From: an uncultured Verrucomicrobiae bacterium
Lineage (GTDB): Bacteria > Verrucomicrobiota > Verrucomicrobiia > Chthoniobacterales > UBA10450
Assembly (NCBI GenBank): GCA_963758535.1
Contig: CAVWVT010000015.1
Location: 202,472 to 266,471, forward strand
Direction: 5' to 3'
Length of the DNA: 64,000 bases
Positions within the stretch are counted from its first letter, which is position 1. Each line of letters opens with the position of its first letter. This document shows positions 484 to 29,877 of this stretch, one piece after another. Under the pieces are notes generated by a model, which saw only the letters and a list, made by a program, of their open reading frames with translations, was not told the DNA's origin and made no database searches. Position numbers and translations under genes: made by a program.

Positions 484-489
484 CAAAAA

Positions 490-526: not shown

Positions 527-544
527 GTCGGTGAATTGCCGTTG

Positions 545-826: not shown

Positions 827-893
827 TTTGTTCCAGTTCCTTTAGCTATGTTTACGTTTCTCCAATAATAAGTCTGACGCGATTTTTTTCAAT

Positions 894-2647: not shown

Positions 2648-2667
2648 TCCTAAGGAGGAAGAAAATT

Positions 2668-3039: not shown

Positions 3040-3062
3040 TCGAAATCGAATTTTTGATCCGT

Positions 3063-3096
3063 GAGCCGCAGTCCGAAAGGGGCTGCGGCTCTTTTT
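3063..3096 (+). terminator. Rho-independent terminator after the hsp20 pair
   Basis: GAGCCGCAG (3063-3071) / CTGCGGCTC (3083-3091) stem followed by TTTTT. Confidence 0.75.
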
Positions 3097-3212
3097 GCGC
3101 GCGCAAGACGACATCTTCGATAACCTTTTTTGAGTTGTAGCGGAAAAAAGCGAATTGCCAAAAGCCGTTCGTTAGGATTGAATCGCGCAGTCAACCCTGA
3201 GGAACAATCCAA

Positions 3213-4871
3213 ATGAAAATCGCGAAAATCACGTCCCTTCTGTTGGTGCTAGCCGCGTCTACGACACTCGCCCGCAGCCCGTTCGATGTTCCTTTTAAAC
3301 TTTCCGATTTGCCGCGACCGACGACCACTGCCGCGCCATCCGGTGCGCCGGCGGTTTATCCTTTCGAGTTTCGAACGATCGATGGCTCCGGCAATAATCC
3401 CATTGATCCACTTCGCGGCGCCGCAGGCACGCCGCTCCTTCGTCTGATGGCTCCCGATTACGCCGACGGCGTGGGTGCGCCGGCGGGCGTTGGTCAGAAA
3501 AGCGCGCGAGAGATCAGCAACCTGGTCGTCGCGCAAGAACATGACGTCCCGAGTCCCGCGCATACGTCCGATTATCTCTGGCAGTGGGGACAGTTCATTG
3601 ATCACGACATGGACCTGACACCGGCCGCGAGCCCCCTCGAGCTTTTCAATATTCCAGTGCCAATTGGCGATCCGCAGTTCGACCCGCTCGGCACCGGTAC
3701 GCAAACCATCGAGCTCGACCGTTCGCTCTATCAGATGATCGATGGCGTTCGCCAGCAGATGAATGCCGACACGGCGTTCATCGACGCGTCGCAGGTTTAC
3801 GGCTCGGATGTAGCCCGCGCCATGGAACTGCGCACGCTGGATGGCACCGGCCGTTTGAAAACAAGTGCGGGCAATTTGCTGCCCTACAACGTGAACGGTT
3901 TCCCCAACGCACCTTCCACCGATCCGAGCTACTTCCTCGCCGGAGATGTGCGGGCTAACGAACAAGTAGGCCTGACTGCGATTCAGACTCTTTTCGTGCG
4001 CGAACATAATTACTGGGCCGGCGTGATCGCGCAGAGCCTGCGGGCCCCCGATGAAGACACCATCTATCATCGTGCCCGTGCCATGGTCGGAGCCGAGATG
4101 CAGATCGTCACCTATCGGGAATTTCTTCCGCTCTTGCTGGGTCCGAATGCGCTTCCGCCTTACACTGGCTATCAGCCGACGGTTAATCCTGGAATCTCCA
4201 ACGTTTTCTCCACCGCAGCGTATCGCGTGGGGCACACCATGCTTTCACCAACGCTCCGCCGGCTTGATGCGAATTTCGTATCGATCGGCGACCTCAGTCT
4301 CGCGTCATCATTTTTCAATCCAATCGAGATAAGCGTTCCCGGCATTGAGCCGTATCTTCGCGGTCTGGCGAAGCAAGTCGATCAGGAGGTGGATTGCTAC
4401 CTCGTGGATGGCGTGCGCAATTTCCTCTTCGGTCCTCCCGGCGCGGGTGGATTCGATCTCGCCTCTTTGAATATTCAACGTGGGCGAGATCATGGTCTGC
4501 CTCGTTATAACGTCGCGCGTCAAGGTTTTGGTCTCGCGCCGAAGGCGACCTTTGCAGACGTAACATCCGATCTCGAACTGCAAGCCAAGCTCGCCGCTGC
4601 TTATGCTTCGCCGGACGACATGGATGTCTGGGTCGGCGGACTGGCCGAGGATCATGTGAACGGCGGCCTTGTCGGCGAATTTTTCTTTACCGTTTTGCGC
4701 GATCAATTTACCCGCCTGCGCGATGGCGATCGCTTTTGGTATCAGACGTATCTTCCGCCGGGTCTCGTGCAGAAGCTGGAGAGCCAAACTTTGAGTGATA
4801 TTGTGAAGCGCAACACACCGATCGGTCGCGGGCTGCGACCCGACGTCTTCACCTATACCGAGACTCGGTAG
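3213..4871 (+). CDS. Secreted animal-type haem peroxidase family protein
   Basis: Signal peptide, then [38 protein letters not shown] and [21 protein letters not shown], typical of the An_peroxidase family. 552 aa, intact. Confidence 0.85.
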
Positions 4872-4944
4872 ACAATCACTCGTATCAGTTCGTTACTTTT
4901 CTGCTTGGCGCGGCGAGCGGGCCGACGTACCTAAGGAGCGCATT

Positions 4945-5982
4945 ATGGCCTCCAAAACAGAAGAAAAACCTGCCGTCGATAAAGTCACGGCTGCGCGAAA
5001 TAAAAATCTCGATCTCGCCATTCAGCAGATCGCCAAGGATTATGGCGACGGCGCGATCATGCGACTCGGCGACGATCAGATCGTCGACATCGATGTCATC
5101 CCCACCGGAAATATTTTGATCGATCGTGCGCTCGGCGTCGGCGGTTTTCCGCGCGGCCGGGTCGTTGAAGTTTTCGGACCGGAATCTTCCGGTAAAACGA
5201 CGCTGACTCTGACCGTGATCGCGCAGGCGCAAAAACGCGGTGGTCTCGCTGCGTTCATCGATGTCGAGCACGCGCTCGATCCGCAGTATGCGCGGAGACT
5301 CGGCGTGAATCTCGACGATCTACTCGTCTCGCAACCAAATTCCGGCGAAGAAGCGCTCCGTATTTGCGAGACGCTCGTTCGCTCAAACGCACTCGATGTC
5401 ATCGTCATCGATTCGGTCGCCGCGCTCGTGACGAAGGCGGAACTCGAAGGCGAAATCGGTGACGTTACGGTCGGCGCGCAGGCACGATTGATGAGTGCTG
5501 CCTTGCGCAAACTTACCTCGCTCATTTCCAAAGCACGCACGTGTTGCGTTTTCACGAACCAGATCCGCGAAAAAATCGGCGTGATGTTTGGTAATCCCGA
5601 AACAACTCCGGGTGGTAAGGCGCTGAAATTTTACGCTAGCGTGCGCGTGGACATTCGTCGCATCGGCGCGATCAAGCAGACCGATGGCGTCGTCACCGGA
5701 AATCGCACGCGCGTAAAAATCGTGAAGAACAAGGTCGCGCCGCCATTCACCGAAGCCGAATTCGACATCATGTATAACGAGGGAATTTCTTCGACGGGTG
5801 CATTGCTCGATCTCGCGCTCGAACAACAAATCGTCGAGAAACGCGGTTCGTGGTTGAATTACAAGGGGACGCAACTGGCGCAGGGTCGCGACGCCGCGAA
5901 AGAGGCGTTGAAGAATGATCCCGCTCTCTACGAAGAGATCGAGACCGCAGTCAAAGCCAAGCTCGAGGAAGATAAAAGTTAA
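4945..5982 (+). CDS. recA: Recombinase RecA
   Basis: Walker [13 protein letters not shown] and the full-length RecA pattern ([23 protein letters not shown]). 345 aa. Confidence 0.97.
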
Positions 5983-6513
5983 GGCAACGCCGCTGTTCGG
6001 TTGCGGCGAAACGTCTTCACCAAATTTCTTTCCGAGCGCCGTGAGATATTTTTCGATCGTGCCGCTTTGTCCAAAGACGAAGCGCGACATGAATCTGAAA
6101 AGTATGTTTGAAACTTCACCTGCTTCGGTGATTTGAACGCGGGTGCCGTCTGCGTCTTTCGCGAAAACGTAGGTCCAAGTCCCCGAATAGCCGAGATCCA
6201 GATCGGCGATGCGAGTAACGATTCTCTTACCCGGCTGGTCTTCAACCAGATCGTACGTAGTCGCGCCATGCTTCGTGTGTTCGCGAAACTGAACGTGATT
6301 GTCCGCCGTAGCGATCATCTCCACGCGCTCCAGATCGGCGCGCCAACTCGGCGCTGTCTTAAAATCCCGAACGGTCTGGTAAATTTCATCCGGCGATCGA
6401 TGAAGGATTATTTCGCGGGATACGACATGCTTTCTCGGCAGCGCTGCGCCAATAAGGAGAATTACTGCGACGATTGCGAAAACGAAAACTGCTGCGATGA
6501 GGACCAGTTTCAT
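5979..6513 (-). CDS. SRPBCC (START/polyketide-cyclase-like) family protein with N-terminal TM helix; 3' end uncertain
   Basis: [22 protein letters not shown]...[26 protein letters not shown]... The frame has no stop and runs on antisense through recA to 5383. The real end is presumably near 5979-6000. Confidence 0.55.
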
Positions 6514-6956
6514 CCTGGTTGTTTCATTTGCCGTGCTGCCCGCGCGAGAAGTTGAAGCCCTCGCAGGGCGGCCCCGCGTTCTTGAGCATTGAGGCGCTTC
6601 AATAATTCTCGGACGCGATCCTTATCCAAGACCGATGTAGACGCAGTGGCTTCCGCGCCCCGAGCTGTCAGACGCAACTCCCGTTGTCGCCTGTCCGAAC
6701 ACGATGGTTTACTCGTCAGGTAACCGAGACGACTGAGCCGCGAAATAGCAGCGGAAAGGGTGGACGCTGCCACACCGAGATGGGCCGCCAGCGCACGGGG
6801 ACTTATTGGATTCTCGAGGTCGAGATGGACGAGGATGGAGGCATCGTGAGATGAAAGGTCCCACGCAGTAGATGCGGCGCGCACATGATCGACGTGGCAC
6901 GCGATGTAAATTTGCGGGAAGAGCCGCTGGACTTCAAAAATAGCTTCAGGGCGCAT
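6510..6956 (-). CDS. MarR family transcriptional regulator
   Basis: Winged-helix MarR pattern (ISPRALAAHLGVAASTLSAAISRLSRLGYLT...DRRQRELRLTARG). Its stop overlaps the SRPBCC start (ATGA), implying an operon. Confidence 0.85.
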   Translation of the reverse strand: MRPEAIFEVQRLFPQIYIACHVDHVRAASTAWDLSSHDASILVHLDLENPISPRALAAHLGVAASTLSAAISRLSRLGYLTSKPSCSDRRQRELRLTARGAEATASTSVLDKDRVRELLKRLNAQERGAALRGLQLLARAARQMKQPG

Positions 6957-7935
6957 ACGCTCATCGTCGAAGCCGAAAATCGTTCGTCAACCCGAACGGT
7001 TGTTTGCCGGCCAACATTTCCATTTGGAGATTTTCTCTGGCTCCATCACTGTGACCTGCAATGACCTCGGCCCAAATTCGGCAATCCTTTCTCGATTTCT
7101 TCCGCGAGAAACAGCACACCATCGTGCCCTCGTCATCGCTCCTGCCGGACGCGCCGAATTTGCTCTTCACCAATGCCGGCATGAACCAATTCGTGCCGAT
7201 CTTCCTCGGTCAGCAAAAACCTTCGTGGAATCCGCCGCGCGTGGCCGACACGCAGAAATGCATTCGCGCCGGTGGCAAACACAACGATCTCGAAGACGTC
7301 GGCCTCGACACCTATCACCACACATTTTTCGAAATGCTCGGCAACTGGAGCTTCGGCGATTATTTCAAAAAAGAAGCGATCGAATGGGCGTGGGAATTGG
7401 TCGTTAGGCGCTGGGGTCTTCCGCCGCAGCGCCTTTACGCCACCGTTTACAAACCCGGGCCTGACGAGCCGAGCGAGTTTGATCAGGAAGCGCACGATCA
7501 CTGGGCACGCTTGTTTCGCGAAGCCGATCTCGACCCCGCGATCCACATCGTTAACGGAAACAAGAAGGATAATTTCTGGATGATGGGCGACACCGGCCCA
7601 TGCGGTCCCTGTTCCGAACTGCACGTCGATCTTACGCCGGATGGCGACACGCGCGGTGCGCTCGTGAATCAGGACGATCCGCGCTGCATCGAGATTTGGA
7701 ATCTGGTTTTCATTCAGTTCAACGCCGACGCCGATGGCAATTTTACGCCGCTGCCGCAGCGACATGTCGATACCGGGATGGGATTTCGAGCGCGCGGTTG
7801 CGATTATTCAGGGAACAAAAAACTTCACTGATTTTTCCGGCACCATCTCAAACTACGAGACCGACGTTTTCCGCCCAATCTTCGATGAGATCGAAAAACT
7901 CAGCGGGAAGAAATACGGATCGACATTGCCAAAGT

Positions 7936-8038
7936 GGAGGACAGGCTTCCAGCCTGTCTCGGCCGGCAGGCTTCCAGCCTGTCGAAAAAGGACGGGCAAG
8001 ATGCCCATCTGCCGGGACAGGCAGGATGTCTAACCTCC
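7936..8038. repeat. Cluster of four short GC-rich hairpins (unit GACAGGCT-TCC-AGCCTGTC) inserted inside alaS
   Basis: Bounded by GGAGG...CCTCC. Perfect 8-bp stem with 3-nt loop at 7940-7958, a second at 7965-7983, and two degenerate copies. Same unit type as 27904-28016. Confidence 0.75.
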
Positions 8039-8377
8039 GAACAGGAGAAAATCGACATCGCATTCCGTGTGATTGCGGATCACATCCGCACGCTAACGTT
8101 TGCAATCGCCGACGGAATCATTCCGTCGAACGAAGGCCGCGGTTATGTCTTGCGCCGGATTCTTCGTCGCGCCGTGCGCTACGGGCGGACGCTTGGATTT
8201 CACGAACCATTTTTCTTCAAACTGGTGGATGTGGTTGCGCTCACGCTTGGTGAAGTCTTTCCCGAAGTCCGGAATAATCAGTCCCGCGTTAAAGAGACGA
8301 TCGCGCGCGAAGAAGACTCTTTCAATAGAACGCTGGACAAAGGCATTGATTTGTTCGAACGCGAGGTCGGGCGCATT

Positions 8378-8985
8378 CTGGGGAGCGCACGCGACTCGCG
8401 TGCCGTTTCCGGCGACTCGCCGGAAACCTCTTCGCTCGCAGCGCAAATAAAGTACGCCAAGCGCCGACTTCCACATTTCGAACGTCCATGGGGCAAATAC
8501 GCCGTCGCCTTTAGCACACACGGGCGACAGCAACTCTCCGAAGAGGAGCGTGATATTGTCCTCGAGTGCATTCTTTTTCCGGCGAAACAAAATCATTTCG
8601 AGCTCTATGTCGCCTGCGTAATGCCGGATCATGTGCATCTGCTTCTTGAGCCGCAAGTCCGCGAACAGGATGCCAAAGGCGATCCGGTTTTTTATTCGCT
8701 GACCGAAATATTACAGAATATCAAATCGGTTTCCGCGCATCGGATCAACAAGAGTCGGAGCGCGAGTGGGCCCGTCTGGGAAAAAGAATCGTTTGACCGT
8801 TTGATTCGATCGGAGAGCGATCTGCAGGAAAAATATCTCTATATCGCGGGCAATCCGTGGGCGGCGGGAGTCGCGGCTCCCGGGAGTGATTATCGATGGT
8901 TGTGGACGTGGGATGTGGAGATTGGGATGAAGAAGGCGTCCGGCGAGTCGCCGGACGCGGCACGCGAGTCGCGTGCGCTCCCCAG
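8378..8985 (+). mobile_element. REPtron-like unit: RAYT (REP-associated Y1 transposase) flanked by inverted REP hairpin doublets, embedded in alaS
   Basis: Terminal inverted repeats at 8378-8427 and 8938-8985 (CTGGGGAGC + GCACGCG-nnn-CGCGTGC + GTTTCCGGCG-nnn-CGCCGGAAAC). The outer ~27 nt are identical. An HUH/Y1 transposase coding region lies between them. Confidence 0.8.
8453..8905 (+). CDS. REP-associated tyrosine transposase (IS200-like Y1/HUH) domain, no start or stop of its own, in frame with alaS
   Basis: [25 protein letters not shown]..., HUH motif [11 protein letters not shown], catalytic-Tyr helix [15 protein letters not shown]. Part of the continuous ORF 7934..9181. Confidence 0.75.
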
Positions 8986-10561
8986 CATTTCTGGCGCGTT
9001 CGCATTTCGGCTTTATGACGAGCAGGGATTTCCGCTCGACCTGACTCAGTTGATGGCACGAGAGCGTGGCTTGAGTGTTGATGTCGCTGGTTTTGAGAAA
9101 TTGATGGACGAACAGCGTTCCCGCGCGCGCGCTGCTCAAAAGAAAGCGGCACTTACTGTTCAGCACACTGGTGTACTTTGAGACAAAATTCATCGGATAT
9201 GACTGCCTGAAAGCAGATGATGCACGTCTATGTAACGTTGTTGAGAAGATTCGGAGGAATTGGGAGTGGTGATATATGGGCAATCGTTGATGTATCGCCG
9301 TTTTACGCGGAGATGGGCGGTCAGGTCGGAGATACGGGTGAATTGAGATTTGTTGAAGATGGCAAGATTTCTGGAAATCGTTAATACGCTGAAGCAGGGC
9401 GGTACGTTCTATTTAAAGCTTGCCGATACGGAGGGTTTCGACTGGTCTCCTGGTCAGCGCCAGTTACGAACTGAGCGTTGATGCGCCGCGTCGCCGCGCG
9501 ATCGAGCGACACCATACCGTCACACATATTTTGCACTGGGCGCTGCACGAACTCGTTAGTCGCGAGGCGGTGCAGAAGGGAAGCTACGTGGGACCGGAGA
9601 AGTTGACGTTCGATTTTTCGAGCGCGGCGCTGACGAAGAAGCAGGTGCGTGATCTCGAGAAAATGGTGAACGAGAAGGTCGCGGAGAACGCGGCGGTTTC
9701 GTGGACCGAAGTTCCCTACGTAGAAGCGAAGAAGCGCTCCGATATTCAGCAATTCTTTGGTGACAAGTATGGCGACGTCGTGCGCGTCGTGCAGATCGGC
9801 GGCGGCCCTAACGAGTTGAATGGATACTCCATGGAACTCTGCGGCGGCACGCATGTGCGCGCGACGGGAGAGATTGGTGCGTTCCGCATCGTGCGCGAAG
9901 AAGCGATCGCGGCGGGTATTCGAAGAATTGAAGCGGTTGCGGGTGGCGCGGCGAAAGAATGGGCGATGAACGAGGCGAAGCGGCAGGAAGAAAAGTTCCA
10001 GACTCTCGGGCGGAAGAAATCTGGCATCGCGGCGCTGCCGGCGTTCACAGATGACGCCGAAGCGAACTGTGATGCTGCAACAGATCGATGCGCGGGCGGC
10101 GCACTTGGAAAAATTGGAAGCGGAAGTTCGCGATTGGGAAAAGCAGAATGCGAAAGCAAACGAAGCGAATCTGCGAAGTCGCGCAGCGGCGATCGCGAAA
10201 GAGCTCGCGGAATCGCATGCTGGAAAGAAGTCGTTAGTCGCGCAGGTGGCGGATGGCGATGGAAAATTGCTGCAGGCGGTTGCGGATTCGCTCAAAACGA
10301 AATTCAACGGCCCGATCTTTCTGGCGGGTGCGACGGATGGAACCGTTGCCTTAATTGCATCCGTTCCGAATGAGCTCGTTTCGAAAATTCCCGCAAACAA
10401 ATTAATTCAGGAAGTCGCGCCGATTGTCGGTGGCAAAGGCGGTGGCCGGCCAGAAAACGCGCGGGGTGCCGGTACGGATGTCGCGAAAATCGAAGAAGCT
10501 CTCGCCAGCGCGCGCGCCTTTTTTGAATAGAAAAAACCGTGAAGAGAACAGCGTCGGGTAG

Positions 10562-11641
10562 GTGCCGCTGTCGGTGAGTCCGATGAAGTCGCTTTCCCGG
10601 TATGCGTTCAGTTGGTTGATCGGCGTTCTCGTTTTCATTCTCGTTTGTGCGGGCATTAACAAGTTCTTCCCGCGGCCAGTGAATTGGATTTCGCTCAAGG
10701 TGCACCGATTTACCGAGAAGAAGGATGACGTCGATATCGTCTTTATCGGATCGAGCAGGAGTTATCATGGGATTGCGCCAAAGGTTTTCGATCAAACGCT
10801 GCTCGCGAGTGGCCACGAATGGCGGTCTTTCAACATGGCGATGGATGGGATGACCACGGCGGAAAGTTTCGCCATGGTGCGACGGCTGCTCGCGTTGCAT
10901 CCGCGAAAACTTAAGTTCATTTTTTTTGAAACTCAGTCCGTCATCACGGCAGGCACTCCGACTGGGGACCAGAAGGTGACGGAGCGAGACGTTTATTGGC
11001 GCGATTGGGAATCGCTGCTGTCCGGTTTCCGGATGTTCGATATGGGTCTCGCCCTGCCGAGCGGCGTTGTTGCTGGAACTCCTTATTCCTTTCGGCGTTG
11101 GAACGATTTCGGGACGCTTCTTTTCGCAAATGTCCATCTTTGGATACGGAACGTAACTAACGTCGGAATCGCGATGGAAATTCTTCGGGGCGCAATCGAT
11201 GTGCTTCCTCCGCGGCCTCCACCATCCCGACAAGAATCCAACGAAGCCAGTTTGCCGTCGAATTGGGATGGCTACTATGCCATGTCGAATCCAATGTCGG
11301 CAGCTACCCTAACGACTTACCGCAAGGCTTTCGCGAGCATGCAGGATCGACCGGTTCGACCTCGACCCAGCCCAATGATGCGCAGCGAACTGGAGCGCTT
11401 CGTGCAAGAAATGACTGCAAAAAATATCGAAGTGGTTTTCGTGGTCCCTCCTTCTGCCAAAGGGGGCCGGGGAGCCGGGATTAATGTTCCCTCGGGAAGC
11501 CGGCTTTTAGCTTATGACGACTTCACTCGTTATCCGCAGTTTTACGAGGAAGAAAACCGACTGGATACCGAACATCTTAATGCTCGCGGCGCGGAGATCT
11601 TTACCCGTGTTCTGGCGCAGAGAGTTTGTCCATTCGCTTGA
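10562..11641 (+). CDS. Membrane-anchored SGNH/DltD-like protein, probable partner of the adjacent MBOAT acyltransferase
   Basis: N-terminal TM helix, block-I-like IVFIGSSRSYHG and C-terminal DTEHLNARGAEIF (DxxH). Sits immediately upstream of the MBOAT gene. The functional call is an inference. Confidence 0.5.
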   Translation: MPLSVSPMKSLSRYAFSWLIGVLVFILVCAGINKFFPRPVNWISLKVHRFTEKKDDVDIVFIGSSRSYHGIAPKVFDQTLLASGHEWRSFNMAMDGMTTAESFAMVRRLLALHPRKLKFIFFETQSVITAGTPTGDQKVTERDVYWRDWESLLSGFRMFDMGLALPSGVVAGTPYSFRRWNDFGTLLFANVHLWIRNVTNVGIAMEILRGAIDVLPPRPPPSRQESNEASLPSNWDGYYAMSNPMSAATLTTYRKAFASMQDRPVRPRPSPMMRSELERFVQEMTAKNIEVVFVVPPSAKGGRGAGINVPSGSRLLAYDDFTRYPQFYEEENRLDTEHLNARGAEIFTRVLAQRVCPFA

Positions 11642-11679
11642 CTCGGCAGGTCGTTAGGTCATTCCGATAGTTCCTTCCT

Positions 11680-13176
11680 GTGCTCTTCGTCGAGTCTCGT
11701 TTTTTCTTTTTCTTTGCGGTCGTCTTCAGCGTCGCCTGGGCGTTGCGGTCGAACACCGCCCGGAAAGCCTTTCTGCTCGCCTGCAGTTATTTCTTTTACT
11801 CCTGCTTTTTCGTCGGCGCTCCGCTTCCTTTCTTCTCGCACTTAATGGCGGGGCAATTGGGCTGCGCTCCCGCCCGGCTGGTGGTTCCCGTTTGTCCTGC
11901 TGGGCTCGACTTGTGTGGACTATTTCGTCGGCCTCAAAATCGAAGACGCCTCCAGCAATGCCCGTCGCCGCGCTTTTTTACTCGTTAGTCTGGTCGGGAA
12001 TCTCGGGACCTTGTGCATCTTCAAATACCTGAACTTTTTCGTCAGCTCGGCCGGCGAATTTCTCGCCTGGATCGGATTGCCAGCTTCAATCCACACGCTC
12101 CGCATCATTCTTCCCTACGCCGTCAGTTTCTACACGTTCCAATCGATCAGCTATACCGTTGAGGTCTATCGACGGCATCTCCGCGCCGAACGCAGCTTTC
12201 TCGATCTGGCGTTTTTCATCTCCTTTTTCCCTCCGCTGGTGGCGGGACCAATCGTGCGGGCCATGCATTTTCTGCCGCAAACAAAAACCCGGCCGCAATG
12301 GTCCCACGTCGACGCGCGGGGAGCGCTCGTTCTTTTTCTAGGAGGTTTCGTCAAGAAAGCCTGCATAGCCGACAGCGTGGCGCCATTTGTCGACCAATAT
12401 TTTGCCAATCCGCGGAGCTACGGCGTGGCGAGCGCGTGGATCGGCGTCCTGCTTTATGCAGTGCAAATTTATTGCGATTTCTCAGGCTATACCGATATGG
12501 CGATCGCCGTTGCCCGTCTCCTTGGTTATTCCCTAACGATCAATTTTAACTTTCCTTATTTCGCCTCATCGATCGCGGATTTTTGGCACCGGTGGCATAT
12601 CAGCCTTTCGAGCTGGTTGCGCGATTATCTTTATATTCCGTTAGGCGGAAATCGGGGTTCGCGCATTTTCACGTATCGCAACATTCTCCTTACGATGCTG
12701 CTTGGCGGTCTCTGGCACGGCGCGTCGTGGGTCTTCGTCCTTTGGGGAGGACTGCATGGCTTGGGCCTGATCGTGCACCGGCAATGGTTGCAGTCGCGGG
12801 CGAGATTAGCTCTCAGCCTCGAGAACATGCCGCGAGTGCCCAGCTGATTTATCACGTCCTTGCCGTGGCGCTCACGTTCTATTTTGTCTGTGTGTGCTGG
12901 ATTTTCTTTCGATCCGTCGAACTGCACAAAGCCGAGATTATCGTGCGCCGTTTCGTCTTCTTGAGAGGACACGGTCGTCAAACCCTGGACCTGCGACTGT
13001 GGTGGCTCCTGGGCGGGTTGGCGTTCGTGCACTGGTTAAACTATAGGAAAGTGTTCGCTACGTGGTGGCGTCGCTTGCCCGATCCAGCGTTTGCCGCGGT
13101 CTACGGCGCGGGTTGGGCGGTCGTTTTGCTTTTCATACCGGCGCACTATGTGCCGTTCATCTATTTCCAGTTTTGA
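11680..13176 (+). pseudogene. MBOAT family O-acyltransferase (AlgI/DltB-like), two frame changes (~11851, ~12840)
   Basis: Pieces 11680..11988, 11915..12847 and 12583..13176. MBOAT motifs FWHRWHISLSSWLRDYLYIPLGGNRG and LLGGLWHGASW. Both shifts lie at G/C homopolymer runs. Confidence 0.85.
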
Positions 13177-13219
13177 GCCAGGTTGTCTCCTAACGAATAG
13201 AATTAGAACCGCTAATGCT

Positions 13220-14218
13220 TCACGGAAGCAGCAAGGTAACAGCGGCGGTGATGCCAAAGGCGATAATGAGCACGCACAAATAAATCACGCTTCCCAGGGC
13301 AAATTTGAAAACTGTCGCGAACCAATTTTGCCTGTAAACCCGGCGGATCGCGACCAACAAATTGATCACGACTGCGAAACCCAGAAAGGTGCAAACCAGC
13401 GGGGTAAGCGGGCCCGGAAGTTGCCAGTTCAGCAGAAGACCGATCCCGATGATTATGAGCGTGGAAAGAAAGACAAACGCGTGCGTGTGCAGGGCGAAGA
13501 TAAGATGTTCGATATAGTATCTTCGTTTGAAGATGTAGAGAAGTTTTAGGACAAACGTAAAGAGCGGAATACAACACAGGACCATCGGACCGAGATTGTC
13601 GATCAGCGCCTTGAGAAAAAGATCTCCGCGAGCGCCTGTAGGTCCGAGTTTTTCTTTCGCGCGTTTCTCTATCCATGATTCGAACGGTGACTTCGGCCGT
13701 CCGTCATCAGAGTCGAAACGAAAGTTGATACCGCTTTTTTCCTCAGTCGCTTTTTTTTCAAACGGATTGGGCGCCGGTGAGGGCGACGCCGTGGTCGCCT
13801 TCTTGGTGTCGCTATCGAAGATGATTGGTTGTTCGTGATGCGGCGGGTGAAGATCATATAGACCTCGGATCAAGAAGAAGAACGCGACGCTTGCGAGCAG
13901 GTAGAGTCGCAGCGGATGAACGTAGCGCTGCCGGCGACCGGCCAAAAATTCGTTCGTTAGGCGCCAGGGTTTTATCAGAACAAGTCCAAACGTTTTCAGG
14001 AAACGTTCGTCCAGATTGAGAAAGGCATCGGCGGCATCGGCCAGGAGCGTGCCGAAGGAGCGATGATAATCGATTGCAGGCTGACCGCATTGCGCGCAGT
14101 AGCGGCCGGTCAAAGCCGCGCCGCAATTTTCGCAATGCGTGAGGAGCGGGCCCGCTTTCTTTTTGCGCCAACCCCAGCGCCGCCGCGGGTATTGTTCCAT
14201 CTCGGCCGCTGTCGGCAT
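13220..14218 (-). CDS. DUF3667-like membrane protein with N-terminal zinc ribbon
   Basis: CENCGAALTGRYCAQCGQP followed by several TM segments. 332 aa. Confidence 0.7.
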   Translation of the reverse strand: MPTAAEMEQYPRRRWGWRKKKAGPLLTHCENCGAALTGRYCAQCGQPAIDYHRSFGTLLADAADAFLNLDERFLKTFGLVLIKPWRLTNEFLAGRRQRYVHPLRLYLLASVAFFFLIRGLYDLHPPHHEQPIIFDSDTKKATTASPSPAPNPFEKKATEEKSGINFRFDSDDGRPKSPFESWIEKRAKEKLGPTGARGDLFLKALIDNLGPMVLCCIPLFTFVLKLLYIFKRRYYIEHLIFALHTHAFVFLSTLIIIGIGLLLNWQLPGPLTPLVCTFLGFAVVINLLVAIRRVYRQNWFATVFKFALGSVIYLCVLIIAFGITAAVTLLLP

Positions 14219-14339
14219 CGCCGACGATCAACGGCGTCGTGTCATCGGACATAGCGCAGTGAAGTTATTGAAAACCGTCAGCCTGCGTCTACGGCGAAGT
14301 CGCTCTCTTAGAGATGGATCTTTTGCGCTTCGCGTTGCT

Positions 14340-14570
14340 CTAGTTACGCAGCAGGAAAAGCAATGCGGTCCCGAAAATGCCGGTCGCAAAAAGCCAGGTG
14401 GTATTTCCAATGAAGTAGGGAAAGACCATGAGCGCGAGGCCGAGGAACATCGGTTTCCAGACGTTCATACGCTTCCCGTAAATGAAGGCGACGAATCCGA
14501 TCGATCCGAAGATCAGTCCGGCCATTAAGTTTGCAAAGCTAAGGGCGGGCATTGGAGGCAGACCAGGCAT
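14340..14570 (-). CDS. Small hydrophobic membrane protein (76 aa), unknown function
   Basis: Two or three predicted TM helices ([18 protein letters not shown]..., [14 protein letters not shown]...). No recognisable family. Confidence 0.45.
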
Positions 14571-14707
14571 GCGCCCCTAGCAGCTTAAGTCAGGCCAATG
14601 CGGCGCGGTCCCGCGCAGAGCACGAACTAAACATTGACCGCGCTCGGGATGGGATGTCACGATGCCGCCCGCCAAAGCAGGTATTTAGCCTAACGAATCA
14701 AAAAAAC

Positions 14708-16318
14708 ATGAATCTTCTCCGAACCAAAAGTCCCGACCTGCTCATCCGCGAATCGGAGGCGCCGGAACGCAAGATGAAGCGCGCGCTCACCGCATTCGAT
14801 CTCACCTGTCTCGGCATCGGCGCGATCATCGGCGCGGGAATATTCGCACTCGCGGGCACTGCGGCGGCCGGAGAATCCGCGCATGTCGGCGAGTCGATCG
14901 TGAAAACGCCGATCATCAATTTTATCATCGCGTTTCTGCATCACAGTGATCTGGTGTTCGGCCGGCCGGCCGCGGGACCCGCTGTCGCGCTTTCGTTCGT
15001 CGTCGCCGCATTGGCTTGTGCATTCGCCGCGCTTTGCTACAGCGAGCTTGCTGCGATGATTCCGGTGTCGGGCTCGGCCTACACTTATTCCTACGCGACC
15101 CTGGGCGAACTGATCGCCTGGATTATCGGTTGGGATTTGATTCTCGAATACGCGGTCGGCAACATGGCCGTGGCAAAGGGTTGGTCGGATTATTTCGTAA
15201 AATTTCTCTACAGTCTAAGTCACGGGGCGATAAGACTTCCACTTTGGCTCGTATCCGATCCGACTACCGCGGCGACCAAAATCTCCCAAGGCGGCGAGAG
15301 TGCGCAGTATTATTCGCCGCTAACTTTGCCCCATCTCTTCGGATATCCCGTCGCTATCGATCTTCCGGCGTTGCTGATTGTCGCGGGGGTGACGGTGCTT
15401 TTGATTTATGGAATTCGCGAGAGCGCGACCACAAACACGACCATTGTCCTGATCAAGCTCGCCGTTGTCGTGTTCGTGATCGCGTTCGGCGCGTTCATGG
15501 TTAACCCGACAAACTGGCACCCATTCATGCCGAGCGGTTTTGGTGGTGTAATGAGCGGCGCGGCGATTGTCTTTTTTGCCTTCATCGGGTTTGATGCAGT
15601 TTCAACTACGGCGGAGGAAACGAAAAACCCACAACGCGATCTTCCGATTGGAATGATCGCGAGCCTGATCATCTGCACGGTGCTCTACGTTTTGATGTCG
15701 GGAATTTTAACCGGCATTAAGAAATACACAGTTTATCTCGGTGATTCTGCGGCGGTCGCGACGGCATTCGCAAGCAAGCCGTGGGCGCAGGCGCTCATCA
15801 GCGCAGGCGCGCTCGCCGGTCTCACGTCCGTGTTGCTCGTTTTCCAACTCGGCCAGCCGCGGATCTTCATGGCGATGGGGCGAGACGGTTTGCTTCCGCA
15901 ATATTTTTCGCGCATTCATCCGCGCTTTCGCACGCCGCACATCACGACCATTTGGACTGGTATCGCTGTTGGTGGCGTGGCGATGTTTACCGACATCGGT
16001 TCGTTAGCCGATCTGACAAACATCGGCACGCTCTTCGCGTTCATCCTCGTTTGTTGCGGGGTCATCGTTTTGCGTCGCAAAGAACCCGGCCGCCCGCGAC
16101 CGTTTCGCGTTCCGCTGGTTCCACTTTTTCCGATCATCGGCGTTCTGCTCTGCTTCGCTCTGATGCTCAGCCTGCCGATTGAAACTTGGATTCGGTTCTT
16201 TGTCTGGCTCGCGATTGGCCTGGTGATTTATTTCTTGTACGGAATTCGCAACAGCAAGCTGGCGCGTGGTATTGATACTGGCGAAACGGAAAACACTCTT
16301 CCGCCGATCGAGCCTTGA
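14708..16318 (+). CDS. APC superfamily amino acid permease (cationic amino acid transporter-like)
   Basis: [17 protein letters not shown]...[20 protein letters not shown], ...[22 protein letters not shown]. The ATG at 14708 is preferred over the upstream TTG of the ORF track. Confidence 0.88.
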
Positions 16319-16325
16319 AGATGCT

Positions 16326-16406
16326 GTCATCTGGAGCGGATGCGGGGCGTCGCTAGTTACTACGCGTGTAGTTGTTCGTGAGGTCCCTCGCGGACGCTGG
16401 GATGAC
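16326..16406. repeat. Degenerate copy of the GTCATCCTGAGCGAAGCGAAGGA inverted-repeat element (family 2)
   Basis: GTCATCTGGAGCGGATGCGGGG ... GAGGTCCCTCGCGGACGCTGGGATGAC. Overlaps the 3' end of the S9 peptidase frame. Confidence 0.6.
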
Positions 16407-23432: not shown

Positions 23433-23481
23433 GTTGCGGCGAGGCGCCGCAACCAGCACGCGAGGCGCGTGCGCTCCCCAG
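23433..23481. repeat. REP hairpin doublet of the RAYT-flanking type
   Basis: GTTGCGGCGaggCGCCGCAAC + GCACGCGaggCGCGTGC + GCTCCCCAG. Same architecture and orientation as the right arm of the alaS REPtron. Overlaps the receptor start codon. Confidence 0.8.
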
Positions 23482-25381
23482 AGTCGTGGCGCTACACACA
23501 GCTATTGGCGCTCGCCCTTGTGAGTGCTCTTTCATCTTCAATCTGCTACGCGCAAGATGCGACACCGTCGCCTTCTCCCACGCCGGCTGAAACGGAAAAC
23601 GCGTCCATAGTTGTCAGCGCGACGCGTATTCCGATTCCGGAAGAGAATTCTCCCGCGACGATCAGCGTGATTTCCGCGGAAGATTTGGAGCAAAAACAAA
23701 TCGAACGTGTTGCCGACGCGTTGCGCGAAGTGCCCGGGCTCTCGGTCGTGCAGACCGGAACACCTGGTCAACTCACGTCTGTCTTCACGCGCGGTTTGCG
23801 CAGCCAACACACGCAAGTGCTGCTCGATGGCATTCCGATTAATCAAGGTCTGCAGGGCGCATTTGATTTTGCCAGCCTGACGACGGACAACATCGATCGA
23901 ATCGAAATTGTCCGCGGTCCGCAAAGCACGATCTACGGTCCGCGAGCGCTCGCGGGTGTGATTCAAATCTTCACCAAGCAGGGAAATGGAACTCCCACCG
24001 CTGAAGCAACTGCGGAAGGAGGATCATACGGAACTTTCCGTGAAGCGCTGCAAAGCTCCGGTTCCTGGCAGCAATTCGACTATTCGTTAGGCTTGAGCCG
24101 ACTCGATACTGACAACGCCCGACCGAACAATCAGTATCGGCTCAGCAATGGCATTGCCAATGTCGGTTGGTCCCCTAACGAGCAACTACGGATCAGCAGT
24201 TTGTTTCTCTATTCAAATGCAGATACGGGAAATCCGAACACCATCTTCAGCCCGAAACCGCTCGATAATTTTCTGACCGAAAAGTGGCTCGTCGCGCCGC
24301 ATGTCGATTTCAAACCGGTCGATTGGTGGGAGCACAAATTCATTCTTAGTTACGATCACGAGCGGCAGCTGAACGATCCGAACGACGATGGGTTTGTCGG
24401 ACCGACGCGCGCATTATTTGAACGAACAACGGTCGATTATCAGAACGATCTGCGACCAGCGTCGTGGCTAACTCTCACAAGCGGATTTTTCTACAGCCGC
24501 GTCAATGCAGGGCAGGAACGTCCTTTCGTTTCGCAGGCTTTCGGTCCGCAGCCGAAATTTCTCAGCGATCACACAAATGAGGTCGCGGGATTTCTGCAAG
24601 CGAGTGTGATGCCGCTCGATGGATTGAACCTGGTTGCCGGTGGACGCTACGATCACTTCAATCAATTCGGCGATGTTTGGACTTATCGCGTGGCGGGAAG
24701 TTACCTGGTCAAACCAACCGACACGACGCTGCATGCGAGTTACGCTACCGGTTTCAGCCCACCGAGCAGCCAGGATAAAATCTTCGGGAATAATTTTGGA
24801 TTGGAGCCGGAACGCGATCGCGGCTTTGACGCAGGAATTGAGCAGCGCTTTTGCAACGGTCGCGTGCGAATCGGCGCGACTTACTTTCACAATCATTTGT
24901 CGAATATCATTGGGTTCAATGGACTGTTCGACACTTTGAATCTTGGTGCGGCGCGCACGCAGGGTTTGGAATTCGAAGCGCACGTTACGCCGATCAGCAA
25001 TCTCACTTTCTCAGCGAGCTACACGTATCTTGATGCGGAAAAAACTTCAGTCGCCGACATTTCGCAATTGCAGGGCGCGCGATTGCCGCGCCGGCCGCGC
25101 AATGAAGTTTACGTCTCCGCGTCCTATCTTTGGTGCAAGAAATTGCGCACGACCGCCGAGGCGAAGTTTGTTAATGCGCGCGAGGAATTGAGTTTCGGTG
25201 CGCCGAATTTCGATATTGAAGATTATTCATTCGTGAATTTCGCGGCCGAATACGAAGTGAATTCGCACATGTCTCCGTTTTCGGCCGGGTCGACAATTTA
25301 ACGAACGAACATTACTCGGAAGTGTTCGGTTTTCCCGCGCTCGGCCGCGCGGCGTATGGCGGAGTGAAGGTTCGGTTTTAA
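23469..25381 (+). pseudogene. TonB-dependent receptor, BtuB-like (vitamin B12 uptake), one frame change ~25276 near the 3' end
   Basis: Signal peptide, plug (IVVSATRIPIPEENSPATISVISAEDLE, VPGLSVVQTG) and barrel. The canonical C-terminus VFGRVDNLTNEHYSEVFGFPALGRAAYGGVKVRF* is reached only after a 1-nt shift at a CC run. Confidence 0.85.
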
Positions 25382-26610: not shown

Positions 26611-26682
26611 GTCATTCCGAGCGAAGTCGAGGAATCTCTTACTGTTCGGCGAAAAGAGATGTCTCGACTTCGCTCGAATGAC
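26611..26682. repeat. Family-2 inverted-repeat element
   Basis: GTCATTCCGAGCGAAGTCGAGGAATCTCT ... AGAGATGTCTCGACTTCGCTCGAATGAC. The right arm contains the upstream ATG of the rmuC ORF. Confidence 0.8.
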
Positions 26683-26685
26683 GGA

Positions 26686-27897
26686 ATGTTGGACTCGCAT
26701 ATCTATCTAATTGCTGGCCTGGTTCTCGGCGCCGCCGTTGCCGGTTGTTTTTTCTTTCTCACGCGCCGCAATCGGTCAGGCGAGTCGGAATTATTGCAGC
26801 GCCTGGAATTGCTCGATCGCGCGCAGGAGCGCGCGGAGCGGATGTTGCGCGAGGAGATGTCGCGTGGCCGCGAAGAAAATGCGACTGCCGCAAAAACCCA
26901 ACGTGATGAGTTGACCGCGTCTCTCGAAAGTGTGCGGTCGATTGTCGATCTGCGTTTGAAACAATTGCAGGACGACAATTCCAAACAAATCGACAAGATG
27001 CGCGCCACCGTTGATGAAAAATTGCAGGGAACGCTCGAGCGCCGCCTTGGCGAATCGTTCAAGCTCGTAAGCGATCGGCTGGAACAAGTGCATCAGGGGC
27101 TCGGCGCAATGCAGCAACTCGCGAGTGACGTCGGCGGTTTGCAAAAAGTCTTGAGCAATGTGAAGACGCGCGGCGGCTGGGGGGAAGTGCAGCTCGGCGC
27201 GTTGCTCGAGCAGGTGCTGACGCAGGATCAATTTGCTCGAAATGTGAAGCTGCGGCCGGAGAGTGGTGAACGCGTCGATTTCGCGATCAAGCTACCGGGC
27301 GACGAAAATGGTGCGCCCGTCTGGTTGCCGATCGATGCAAAATTTCCGACGGAAGATTATCAACGTCTCATCGAAGCGCAGGAGAAAGGAAATGTGCCGG
27401 CGATCGATGAAGCGATGAAAAGTCTGGAAACGGAATTGAAACGCGGCGCGAAAGATATTTGCGCGAAGTATATCAATCCGCCGAGAACAACGGATTTCGC
27501 GCTGATGTTTTTGCCGACGGAAGGATTGTACGCGGAAGCGATACGGCGCGTCGGTTTGGTGGAACAGGTGCAGCGCGATTGCAAAGTAGTCTTCGCTGGA
27601 CCGACGACACTGGTCGCGCTGCTCAACAGTTTGCAGATGGGATTCCGAACGCTCGCGATCCAAAAACGCTCGAGTGAAGTCTGGAATTTGCTCGCCGGAG
27701 TGAAATCGGAATTCGGAAAATTTGGCGAAGCGTTGGCAGCAGTGCGGGACAAACTCGATCAGGCGGCGCGCAAGATGGAAGATGTCGATGTGCGTTCGCG
27801 GGCTCTGACACGAAAATTACGCGATGTGGAAGAACTTCCGTCAAATCCGCAGCCGATGCTGCGAGAGTTGATCTCACCAGAGGAAGGGGAGGATTAA
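26686..27897 (+). CDS. rmuC: DNA recombination protein RmuC
   Basis: N-terminal TM helix, long coiled-coil, then the RmuC C-terminal domain (FALMFLPTEGLYAE, VVFAGPTTLVALLNSLQMGF). The ATG at 26686 is preferred over 26659, which lies inside the repeat. Confidence 0.85.
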   Translation: MLDSHIYLIAGLVLGAAVAGCFFFLTRRNRSGESELLQRLELLDRAQERAERMLREEMSRGREENATAAKTQRDELTASLESVRSIVDLRLKQLQDDNSKQIDKMRATVDEKLQGTLERRLGESFKLVSDRLEQVHQGLGAMQQLASDVGGLQKVLSNVKTRGGWGEVQLGALLEQVLTQDQFARNVKLRPESGERVDFAIKLPGDENGAPVWLPIDAKFPTEDYQRLIEAQEKGNVPAIDEAMKSLETELKRGAKDICAKYINPPRTTDFALMFLPTEGLYAEAIRRVGLVEQVQRDCKVVFAGPTTLVALLNSLQMGFRTLAIQKRSSEVWNLLAGVKSEFGKFGEALAAVRDKLDQAARKMEDVDVRSRALTRKLRDVEELPSNPQPMLRELISPEEGED

Positions 27898-28017: not shown

Positions 28018-29784
28018 TCACAGCACTTCGTCCCACTTCGATTTATCTTTGAGCAGGATTTCACGGAGCAACCGAATCTGCGGCATTCCGTGATCGAGAA
28101 TTTCGTCGTGGAATTTTTGCAGCGAAAACTTGTCGCCTTCCTGTGCCTTGTAATCCTCGCGCAGTTTAAGGATCTGCAATTTGCCTAACGTGTAATTCAG
28201 GTAACCCGGATCGAACGTTCCGCGCATCGCTTCCGAACGCGACGGCTTCGCCGCGTAATAGCAGTTGTCCTGGAAAAACTTCGTCGCTTCATCCACCGAC
28301 ATTTTCTGCGTGTGCAACTTGATCGAGACGCAAAGCCGGCAGAGTCGAAGCAATGCTTCGTCCGCTTGCGCCATGCGATATTTCGCCGCGGTCCTGGCCT
28401 CCTCGTCGGTCGGTGTCATCTTGTTACCGCCACCGTAGCCTTCATCGATCATCATTTTTTCGCAGTAATGCGCCCAGCCTTCGACGAAGGCGTAACTCCC
28501 GAAAATCTTCTCGACTCTGGTTGCGGAGGAAGCATTGAGATGAAGGAACTGCACGTAGTGCCCAGGATATGCCTCATGAATTGTCACCACGTCGGTCGTG
28601 TAACGATTGAATGAAGTCAGCCATTCATTCTTCTGCGCGTCCGTCCAGTCGCTCTCCACCGGCGTAACGTAATAATAAGCTTCCTTCGCTTTGTTCTCGA
28701 ACGGTCCGGGCGTGTCCATCGAAGCAAACGTCGTCGCGTGACGGTATGACGGCGTTTCTTTTACCTGCGCGCGGACATCGGATGGAATTTTGACGAGCTT
28801 ATGCTCGATCACATACTTCCGAATCTGCTCGAGATTTTTTGTGACGTCGGGAATCAAACTCGCCGCCGTGGGGTGCTCGTTTTGTATTTGCCTAAAAACT
28901 TCAATCGCCGGCTTGTTCGGATCGATCGCCTTGGCGGCTTTGGCGAAAATCTCCTGTTCCTCTTTCAGCTTTTGCAATCCGATCTCGAGAATTTTCTCTG
29001 GCGCAAGATCGACAAATTCGGTCTCCGCGAGCATGCGGTGATATTTTTCTTCGCCGAGCGCAAAGTCGGCCGTTGCCTTCGGCAATTTTTCCCGCTCCAG
29101 CCAGTTTGCGTAATCATTCAATGCCGCAATGGCTTTGCGATTCGAGCTGCCGAATGCGGCCATCACCTTCTCGTCCTTTAAATCTTTGACGGCTTCGAGC
29201 AGATCTTTCTGGAGAAAATGGGCCGCGCCGCGTGCGATTTGGATCGCGAGTTCGACGTATGGTTTCGGGAGGTTCTCCGCGAGATTGGTTTTGCCCGCGA
29301 TCATGATGTTAGGGATCTGCGCTTCGATGGCAACGATGCTGCGCACGCGATCGTCCAGGGGCGCAAACTTGCGCGAGATATAAATATTCAGGTCGACCGC
29401 GTTCGCGTAAGTCATCGGATTGCGCTCGAAGATGGCCATATCCTGAATCATAAACAGCTCTTTGCTGATAGCCGCCTGGAGGATGCGCAGATCGATGGAG
29501 TTGCGCGCGTTCAGTTTCGAAAGATCGAATTTCTTGAGGCGATCGTCGAAGCGTTTCAAGCGCGACACTTCCGCATCAATCGAAAGGCGCGTGTAGTCGT
29601 TGATCTTGCCATCGAATTCGTGGAAGCCGAGGGCGACCGCTTCGAGGGGACGAGCAGCGAGATATCCCCTGATGAATTCATCGGACACGCTCGCGAATTC
29701 GGCGTCGCTATCCTGCGCGTGGAGATTGGGGGCAAGAGAGAGCAGAAGCAGCGAAATGCACGCGAGCAATCGTGGTAATTTCAT
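28018..29784 (-). CDS. DUF885 family (putative metallopeptidase-like) secreted protein
   Basis: Signal peptide MKLPRLLACISLLLLSLAPNLHA. HEAYPGHYVQ motif. Intact. Confidence 0.85.
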   Translation of the reverse strand: MKLPRLLACISLLLLSLAPNLHAQDSDAEFASVSDEFIRGYLAARPLEAVALGFHEFDGKINDYTRLSIDAEVSRLKRFDDRLKKFDLSKLNARNSIDLRILQAAISKELFMIQDMAIFERNPMTYANAVDLNIYISRKFAPLDDRVRSIVAIEAQIPNIMIAGKTNLAENLPKPYVELAIQIARGAAHFLQKDLLEAVKDLKDEKVMAAFGSSNRKAIAALNDYANWLEREKLPKATADFALGEEKYHRMLAETEFVDLAPEKILEIGLQKLKEEQEIFAKAAKAIDPNKPAIEVFRQIQNEHPTAASLIPDVTKNLEQIRKYVIEHKLVKIPSDVRAQVKETPSYRHATTFASMDTPGPFENKAKEAYYYVTPVESDWTDAQKNEWLTSFNRYTTDVVTIHEAYPGHYVQFLHLNASSATRVEKIFGSYAFVEGWAHYCEKMMIDEGYGGGNKMTPTDEEARTAAKYRMAQADEALLRLCRLCVSIKLHTQKMSVDEATKFFQDNCYYAAKPSRSEAMRGTFDPGYLNYTLGKLQILKLREDYKAQEGDKFSLQKFHDEILDHGMPQIRLLREILLKDKSKWDEVL

Positions 29785-29877
29785 AAGGCGAAGTCTTGGC
29801 AGAAGCGACGGGACCTTAGCTGACGCTTTGTCCGTTGCCAAAAATTTCCGCATGCACGATCATCCTTACTCATCCCT

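Follow-up and report, generated by a model that had tools for sequence, protein, structure and literature searches.

A RAYT-class transposase element lying in frame within alaS of an uncultured Verrucomicrobiae bacterium, with relatives inside other housekeeping genes

The DNA considered here, referred to below as the window, is a stretch of 64,000 nucleotides (nt) from an uncultured Verrucomicrobiae bacterium (assembly GCA_963758535.1, contig CAVWVT010000015.1, positions 202,472 to 266,471 of the forward strand). Within it lies alaS, the gene for alanyl-tRNA synthetase (AlaRS), and within alaS lies an insert which encodes a transposase of the RAYT class, i.e., of the type associated with repetitive extragenic palindromes (REPs). 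One open reading frame (ORF) of that gene, 7934-9181 on the plus strand, runs for 415 codons without a stop, passing from AlaRS to RAYT and then back again to AlaRS, with Pfam finding tRNA-synt_2c in two stretches (E 1.5e-59) and Y1_Tnp between them. Such an uninterrupted frame had been called in an earlier reading of these letters (the original prediction), as too had an inserted length, inclusive of a CATT, of 612 nt, in frame and stop-free. Both hold upon reading of the codons, that is, the insert is found at 8378-8989 and consists of 608 plus 4 nt, or 204 codons, in the frame of alaS. The insertion point, based on alignment to E. coli AlaRS, is a loop between two helices of the helical domain, at residues ~385-388. 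Coordinates of individual features are collected in Table 1.

The ends of the insert are inverted repeats with arms (8375-8429 and 8934-8988) that are 55 nt long and 91% complementary. Each arm, as had been predicted, is built from two hairpins with 3-nt loops. These have stems of 7 and 10 bp and, folded as DNA, minimum free energies of -22 to -26 kcal/mol, and they are more stable than shuffled sequence (z -3.4 to -5.2). Inverted arms of 40-57 nt are present also in most related loci, with the head and the first hairpin of the left repeat conserved across loci and the stems displaying compensatory changes. The repeat head across these loci is YYGGGGAGC or GGGTAGC. Description of the insert as a REP-type unit stands with regard to its hairpins but not with regard to its head, which is GGGGAGC rather than the GTAG of classical REPs. 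Flanking both ends of the insert in the window, again as predicted, is CATT, and the same is seen in two close relatives. These are L001, which is of ~95% DNA identity and syntenic from ribD through recA to alaS, and L003, which comes from a Microflora Danica long-read metagenome-assembled genome (MAG). In a further locus, L043, it is instead AACAT that is found at both ends. Comparison of the flanks of ~55 copies reveals no consistent flanking repeat, with none seen in most loci outside of the window, L001, L003, and L043. The combination of a CATT to the left of the element and a CATT at its end would fit the IS200/IS605 rule of inserting beside a short target. Removal of 8378-8989 had been thought to recreate a normal join, and insert-free orthologues do indeed exist, but the computed deletion leaves a loop that is 2-4 residues shorter than in any empty allele seen.

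In terms of motifs, profile, and predicted fold, the insert reads as a Y1/HUH transposase of the RAYT class, in agreement with the original prediction. NCBIfam NF047646 (REP_Tyr_transpos) matches the 204 residues with an E of 9e-22 and 77.5 bits, versus a cut-off of 80, over profile positions 4-145 of 146, and Pfam PF01797 matches with 34.4 bits versus a cut-off of 23. The HUH motif is DHVH, at 8627-8638. Its residues D84, H85, and H87 are invariant among 26 homologues (alignment A1), as are the presumed catalytic tyrosine, Y155, within the sequence YIAGNP of a YIxxNP helix, and N159; P160 is present in at least 90% of copies. A total of 23 residues, including the HUH and the tyrosine, do not vary across copies that otherwise are 43-75% identical. 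The A1 profile, when compared with the PDB, has E. coli TnpA_REP (4ER8) as its sole match (E 5.7e-5), and a plain sequence search of the PDB gives only marginal matches to ISDra2. An AlphaFold model was made of the residues encoded by 8039-9168, using 50 homologues, and has a mean confidence (pLDDT) of 81. With this model Foldseek returns AlaRS catalytic fragments first, then 4ER8 (E 4e-7, target TM 0.68, 159 columns), and then the ISDra2, IS200, and IS608 transposases. Model confidence is 83-97 for the AlaRS helices before the insert, above 90 for the RAYT domain, and 83-86 for AlaRS after the insert, with disorder seen over residues 116-147 (left repeat and leader; pLDDT below 50, about 30) and over residues 295-313 (right repeat; below 50). 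The model thus predicts a RAYT domain that is folded and attached to a loop in the helical domain of AlaRS, with the repeats encoding the disordered linkers on either side.

What the insert does not possess is a start or stop of its own. No ATG, GTG, or TTG is found over codons 8378-8464, i.e., ahead of the conserved RRLPH, which is as the original prediction had it. Nor is there a stop codon after the right repeat within the insert frame, and none of 70 copies has an ATG in the 15 codons that precede the core. An ATA at 8447 was considered as a mutated ATG start and was rejected, as no homologue has Met in that column. The distance from repeat head to RRLPH ranges among copies from 72 to 166 nt, and the phase of the head nonetheless is fixed in 50 out of 56 (xxG GGG AGC GCx, read as [L/P]-G-S-A); a Verrucomicrobiales subgroup employs a different phase of the head, one which is also stop-free. 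As these length changes are in multiples of three, the pattern is that of a coding region rather than of an untranslated leader. Relatives of ~205 aa, which superficially are ‘stand-alone’, have their start 6-25 codons ahead of the left repeat and their stop 2-6 codons past the right one, and therefore in the examined copies neither a start nor a stop lies between the two repeats. Five such short-ORF copies (L080, L077, L010, L014, and L023) are located between conserved genes, with an ATG on the host side, 6-25 codons ahead of the left repeat, and with a stop a few codons past the right one, and the neighbours that several of them share may mark a conserved intergenic site of residence. More distant relatives, of ~165 aa, have an ordinary Met located a few residues ahead of RRNLPH, and the embedded habit is thus the derived condition.

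The arrangement in the window is real, as the original prediction supposed, but it is not the singular accident that it was taken to be; instead it is one member of a large family, and the finding is more general than that earlier account had it. A protein search using the ORF yields AlaRS proteins of Verrucomicrobiota, with ~75 of the best 120 carrying RAYT. These are 50-98% identical to the query ORF, with constant spacing from the VIADH motif. Besides the position occupied in the window (site B), there is a second AlaRS site (site A), just before the AFRVIADH helix, with some proteins filled there (P0021, P0033, P0036, and others) and some filled at both. Scanning of one genome per GTDB species, using A1 as a profile of 26 inserts, turns up at least 493 loci encoding a relative, and the locus counts which follow are for the best 80 of these, picked by similarity to AlaRS-embedded copies. 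Almost all are from Verrucomicrobiota MAGs (Chthoniobacterales, Limisphaerales, Terrimicrobiaceae, Akkermansiaceae, Prosthecobacter, Luteolibacter, and Ereboglobus), with one labelled Kiritimatiellota. If ‘embedded’ is taken to mean an ORF that extends for 100 codons or more ahead of the RAYT and for 120 codons or more past it, then 73 of the 83 RAYT copies at these loci are embedded in frame inside host ORFs. The remaining ten consist of four that are interrupted only in long-read MAGs and six that are short ORFs.

The hosts of these 80 loci, as judged from clustering of masked flanks along with Pfam, are AlaRS (41), RecG (18), MetH (11, one of them with two RAYTs), ThrRS (4), and CarB (2). 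An exhaustive search of representative proteins (316 clusters at 50% identity below an E of 1e-30, with at least 44 of the best 150 representatives being 400 aa or longer) adds as hosts ValRS, PriA, and a DNA methylase. The ValRS-RAYT proteins (P0185 and P0264) are from Phycisphaeraceae MAGs, and embedding thus appears to extend to Planctomycetota. For hosts other than AlaRS the insert is found between Pfam domains or, in RecG and ThrRS, separates conserved motifs that belong to a single domain. Several short-read MAGs (e.g., L005, L006, L020, L028, L043, L058, and L072) possess AlaRS::RAYT ORFs that run uninterrupted for 1100-1200 aa, and for that reason the fusion ORF is real, and it is intact where sequence quality is good. 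As far as sequences can indicate, this therefore is a family of elements which lives inside the reading frames of housekeeping genes, and which does so recurrently in many Verrucomicrobiota. With two database proteins (P0048 and P0059), an unrelated N-terminal host, i.e., an FAD oxidoreductase or a GlcF-like Fe-S protein, is joined to the AlaRS C-part via the RAYT, with the GlcF-like left junction being in frame; these could be assembly chimeras across a repeated element, or could result from recombination between copies.

Ratios of nonsynonymous to synonymous divergence (dN/dS) show that the RAYT is under purifying selection, being 0.10-0.19 for the insert versus six relatives and 0.08-0.12 for the RAYT core, as compared with 0.06-0.15 for the AlaRS flanks. 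The repeats too are constrained. Hairpin 1 has a standard pair in 99.4% of cells, and five of its seven pairs display compensatory changes, with stem variants including GCACGCG/CGCGTGC, GCGGGCG/CGCCCGC, GCGCCCG/CGGGCGC, and ACAGGCTG/CAGCCTGT. Its covariation score is 0.455, whereas shuffles give 0.144 (none of 500 attains the observed value) and slid registers give no more than 0.109, all as measured using a set that was pre-selected for the 3-nt-loop register, with 89 of 111 having seven of seven pairs. A hairpin in DNA or RNA would be of no use to a peptide that serves as a linker, and the constraint on the repeats is therefore one on nucleic-acid structure.

The host gene itself lies in several frames. 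Its pieces in the window are 7061-7831, 7734-8033, 7934-9181, ~9177-9270, 9217-9384, 9420-10373, and 10051-10530, with shifts of frame near 7783, within 7936-8038, and near 9174, 9248, 9375, and 10067. These frame changes were missed by the original prediction, as were the miniature element described below and the spread of this architecture among other genomes. Relative to L003, single bases have been added at 7783, 9174, 9248, 9375, and 10067, and neither L001 nor L003 possesses these extra bases. Comparison of positions 1-19444 with L001 (95-98% identical) indicates dozens of 1-nt indels, in both directions and across all genes, over 19 kb of synteny, which suggests low base-level accuracy for the window contig and for the L001 assembly alike; contig naming along with the indel pattern suggests error-prone long-read assemblies. 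Because such indels run through the whole of this syntenic stretch, the frame breaks in alaS are probably errors of long-read assembly rather than a consequence of gene decay. The MBOAT gene at 11915-13549 is in three frames in the window and intact in L001. Over 8040-9160 the window, L001, and L003 agree without any indel.

The filled alaS is, by its surroundings, the positional orthologue of insert-free alaS and not a spare copy, as empty alleles share their gene neighbourhood with filled ones. That is, the downstream neighbours, DUF3667, an amino-acid permease, and a peptidase S9, are the same in filled and empty genomes. One MAG with an empty site B (L084, 729-3498; GCA_003219095.1) has an alaS that is called as two overlapping ORFs, of 719 and 212 aa, with the split before the DHHA1 domain. 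Alignment to insert-free genes, as had been proposed for definition of the empty site, finds site B unoccupied in ~30 AlaRS proteins which are 75-85% identical to that of the window, the element thus being polymorphic in terms of presence and absence. Site B of one AlaRS (P0068) retains solely a 12-aa, single-hairpin remnant, which could be a footprint of excision or of deletion. L039 has at site B a copy that shares 90% identity with the site-A copies of L032 and L040, and a copy in ThrRS shares 81% identity with one at site A of AlaRS; copies have thus moved both between sites and between genes.

Table 1. Positions within the window of alaS, of the parts of its insert, and of associated repeat elements
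Feature	Position	Strand	Details
alaS (alanyl-tRNA synthetase), host gene	7061..10530	+	Pfam tRNA-synt_2c, tRNA_SAD, and DHHA1 on pieces; tblastn with intact orthologue
RAYT-less miniature hairpin element (MITE/REPIN-like), alaS site A	7936..8038	+	103 nt; 48-nt inverted arms
AlaRS helical (tRNA-recognition) domain up to insertion point	8039..8377	+	aligns to E. coli AlaRS residues 279-385
Left terminal inverted repeat, head CTGGGGAGC	8378..8429	+	hairpin 1 at 8387-8403, hairpin 2 at 8405-8427; encodes 17 residues
Linker codons, left repeat to RAYT core	8430..8461	+	no ATG, GTG, or TTG; no homologue has Met in this column
RAYT catalytic core, ends YRWLW	8462..8905	+	NF047646, PF01797; HUH at 8630-8638, catalytic Tyr at 8840-8842
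Right terminal inverted repeat plus CATT, tail GCTCCCCAG	8934..8989	+	hairpins at 8936-8958 and 8960-8976; 17 residues, stop-free
AlaRS resumed, same frame	8990..9168	+	aligns to E. coli AlaRS residues 389-438
Solo copy of right-end repeat module, two hairpins plus GCGCTCCCCAG	23434..23482	+	5' end of ORF 23469..25301

In addition to the insert, alaS of the window has at site A a miniature hairpin element, one resembling a MITE (miniature inverted-repeat transposable element) or a REPIN, and which lacks a RAYT. As DNA it folds with -33.7 kcal/mol (z -6.6), and its left half resembles the left terminal inverted repeat of RecG-embedded RAYT elements (L047 and L045). The single frame change within it is probably a 1-nt assembly error. 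A different miniature is found at the same alaS site in L003 (3545-3660), cleanly in frame (LGSAGVPPVGEGVSPSRTSESPSRRDTASNDRDGRATQ), with the GGGTAGC head that is typical of the recG type. Further off in the window, the first possible start (GTG at 23469) of a 610-aa ORF falls inside the solo repeat. Repeats of other sorts are present as well, i.e., an inverted pair of GTAG-type REPs at 23095-23154 (GTAGAGGCGCTTGTGTCAAGCGCC ... GGCGTTTGACACAAACGCCGCTAC), which is a different family from that of the RAYT-flanking repeats, and inverted GACAGGCTTCCAGCCTGTC-type hairpins at 27933-28012, between the convergent ORFs 26659..27897 (+) and 28018..29853 (-).

How might these observations be explained? 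We consider it probable that the insert is a selfish transposon, consisting of a RAYT along with its terminal inverted repeats, whose translation product forms an internal domain of the host protein. The element belongs to the RAYT class of the IS200/IS605 (Y1 HUH) superfamily, and has a reading frame that runs through both repeats and that would be translated as part of whichever ORF holds it. The product would be a single polypeptide consisting of the AlaRS N-part, a flexible linker of ~30 aa (left repeat), the RAYT domain, a second linker of ~20 aa (right repeat), and then the AlaRS C-part. AlaRS presumably stays functional, since the insert would be a self-contained domain held on flexible tethers. 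Expression of the element would be borrowed from an essential gene, and the element would be protected from loss because imprecise deletion would destroy alaS. The domain, in turn, would act on the hairpins as found in single-stranded DNA, as in the peel-and-paste mechanism of its family. Presumably only those insertions into essential genes that are sense, in frame, and within tolerant loops survive, and such insertions, once in place, would be hard to lose. IS608 and ISDra2 use the lagging-strand template, which in co-directional genes is the sense strand, and such use would favour the sense orientation of the inserts seen. Looked at more broadly, it seems about evenly balanced whether an HUH (RAYT-class) lineage of Verrucomicrobiota, and apparently of Planctomycetota, gave up its own start and stop codons and lives as a translated insertion domain in essential multidomain proteins (AlaRS, ThrRS, ValRS, MetH, CarB, RecG, and PriA), with repeats that double as recognition hairpins and flexible linkers and with the fusion itself being the active transposase. 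Such a lineage would amount to a counterpart of inteins that does not splice, and its mode of persistence would be one not previously described for a bacterial transposon.

A number of points weigh against the above interpretation. RAYT copies group mostly by host gene, for which reason long vertical residence would dominate, with jumps rare. Between the window and L003 the synonymous divergence (dS) of the insert is 0.067, versus 0.44 and 0.64 for the two alaS flanks, and this tract of low divergence overruns the element by ~50-130 nt on the left and by at least 44 nt on the right. Recent transposition as the source of a young insert common to the window and L003 is not supported, as the tract exceeds both ends of the element; because of that overrun, transfer via homologous recombination with co-converted flanks is the better fit. 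Outside of ORF 7934-9181, alaS is broken at least five times, and formally a decaying alaS in the genome from which the window comes could still account for this. Description of the family as ‘mostly embedded’ applies to the 80-locus sample only, as those loci were chosen by similarity to AlaRS copies, and many family members are short ORFs. The hairpin statistics are from a set selected beforehand for the 3-nt-loop register. Relatives found are from MAGs only, with a cultured host looked for and not found, and a few of these MAGs have wrong-looking taxon labels.

Rather than being a mobile element, the insert might be a domesticated domain, i.e., a RAYT that was captured long ago, that serves host proteins such as through nucleic-acid binding, and that is now immobile. 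The clustering of copies mainly by host gene is what would then be expected, as would host and site combinations that in some cases span whole orders, strong purifying selection on the RAYT, and a domain that is well folded in the model. Even so, domestication appears unlikely given that at least seven unrelated proteins serve as hosts, for which one shared advantage is difficult to imagine, that close relatives possess empty sites and remnants, and that copies have moved between sites and genes. Moreover, both end repeats keep their hairpins by way of compensatory changes, which would be needless for a linker peptide, and the catalytic HUH and Tyr are invariant. Alternatively, the insert could be removed by RNA splicing, ribosomal bypass, or protein splicing, such that the mature AlaRS is normal. 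This is the solution of other mobile elements in essential genes (inteins, group I introns, IStrons), and the two repeats could indeed pair in the mRNA. We nonetheless view removal as quite improbable. The flanks are merely ~50 nt of simple hairpins, and removal at the RNA level would have no need of the stop-free, frame-keeping design of 73 out of 83 copies. No Rfam family matches 6900-10700, even at an E of up to 1 (one match elsewhere is at chance level), which also ruled out a group I or II intron or IStron. An intein was likewise ruled out, both by a fold that is HUH rather than Hint and by junctions (...GRI/LGSA and ALPS/ISG) whose residues vary between copies (L/P/S-G-S-A ... A-L-P-x) and which have neither a Cys/Ser start nor a His-Asn end.

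Two other possibilities call into question the gene or the assembly rather than the element. Were alaS of the window dead or dying, and a second alaS doing the work, then insertions would be tolerated, which is in keeping with the several frame changes and with the presence of a second inserted element (7936-8038). That we judge to be very improbable, as the indels are contig-wide, go in both directions versus L001, and are absent from L001 and L003 alike, and as the dN/dS of the flanks is 0.06-0.15, the gene corresponds in position to its insert-free orthologues, and full-length fusion ORFs exist in short-read MAGs. Misjoining of a repeated RAYT into alaS, whether upon assembly or upon binning, is a scenario that P0048 and P0059 bring to mind, since these do look like chimeras joined through a RAYT. 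For the window it is scarcely credible, with both junctions identical in three closely related contigs (window, L001, and L003) that lack indels there, with equivalent junctions recurring in dozens of assemblies, short-read and long-read, that were made independently in different studies and on different platforms, and with both AlaRS flanks in one frame on contigs of up to megabase size. An assembly chimera, the eventuality against which the original prediction had cautioned, is thereby excluded.

If the fusion is indeed translated and active, then embedding would represent a new strategy of persistence for bacterial transposons, with expression and protection from deletion both supplied by an essential gene and with linkers encoded in recognition hairpins. 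It would show also that aminoacyl-tRNA synthetases, MetH, CarB, RecG, and PriA tolerate insertions of 200-aa domains at defined loops, which could be useful for protein engineering. More immediately, an embedded RAYT explains pipeline labels such as ‘alanine--tRNA ligase-related’ or ‘partial’, and such genes may likewise affect the marker-gene and completeness estimates made for MAGs of Verrucomicrobiota. For the study of RAYTs and REPs, this would be a natural system in which a transposase and its repeats are tied, physically as well as translationally, to a host gene.

Among known systems, RAYTs and REPtrons (TnpA_REP 4ER8, NF047646) have in common with the insert the Y1 HUH fold, the DHVH, and the YIxxNP tyrosine, along with a gene found between inverted GC-rich hairpins and solo hairpin copies elsewhere. 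In contrast to them, the insert is without its own start and stop, its ORF passes through both repeats, it is located inside of a housekeeping ORF rather than being intergenic, its head is GGGGAGC instead of GTAG, and its NF047646 score (77.5) falls slightly short of the cut-off (80). Elements of the IS200/IS605 type (IS608, ISDra2) possess the same catalytic domain, use hairpin ends on single-stranded DNA, and insert beside a short target without duplication. Theirs, however, are asymmetric, non-inverted ends as well as their own expression signals, whereas the insert has true inverted repeats as ends and would depend for expression on the host ORF.

With regard to its repeats the insert resembles the TIRtrons (TIRYT), which, in those passages of Di Nocera et al. 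(2013; PMC3733652) that bear on them, are RAYT-like genes enclosed by long terminal inverted repeats; these repeats have a G-rich head (consensus GGGGWSAS) and in some cases overlap the ends of the transposase ORF. The insert is similar in having a RAYT-like gene between long terminal inverted repeats (arms of 55 nt) but, going by the consensus as given there, differs in its head, GGGGAGCG/A or GGGTAGCG, with GGGGAGCG deviating from GGGGWSAS at position 7 and GGGGAGCA at positions 7 and 8. Those same passages place short REPs inside of ORFs, most of them in Opitutus terrae, and contain no whole transposase gene in frame inside of a host gene. The classical in-frame case, as cited there, is the Rickettsia palindromic elements, i.e., palindromic selfish DNA within protein genes that is translated as surface peptides. 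It is these elements and intragenic REPs that the miniatures at alaS site A (window 7936-8038 and L003) resemble, while the site-B element, unlike the short and non-autonomous Rickettsia palindromic elements, is 612 nt, has a complete transposase, and would itself be a domain of the host protein.

From their survey of this superfamily Quentin et al. (2018; PMC6006769) dropped ‘unexpectedly long’ fused proteins. The architecture has been picked up by automated annotation, with names that include ‘alanyl-tRNA synthetase/REP element-mobilizing transposase RayT’ (JGI) and ‘alanine--tRNA ligase-related protein’ (PGAP). A full-text literature search found no paper describing the architecture, with many subscription papers outside of its coverage and prior description therefore possible. 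A comparison can be made also with inteins. From these the element differs in lacking the Hint fold, splicing-junction residues, and any sign of removal, such that presumably it stays in the mature protein. Like inteins, though, it would be selfish, is found in frame in conserved essential proteins, and is one for which imprecise loss would be lethal, and the spread of inteins from allele to allele, with co-converted flanks, resembles the tract that is shared by the window and L003.

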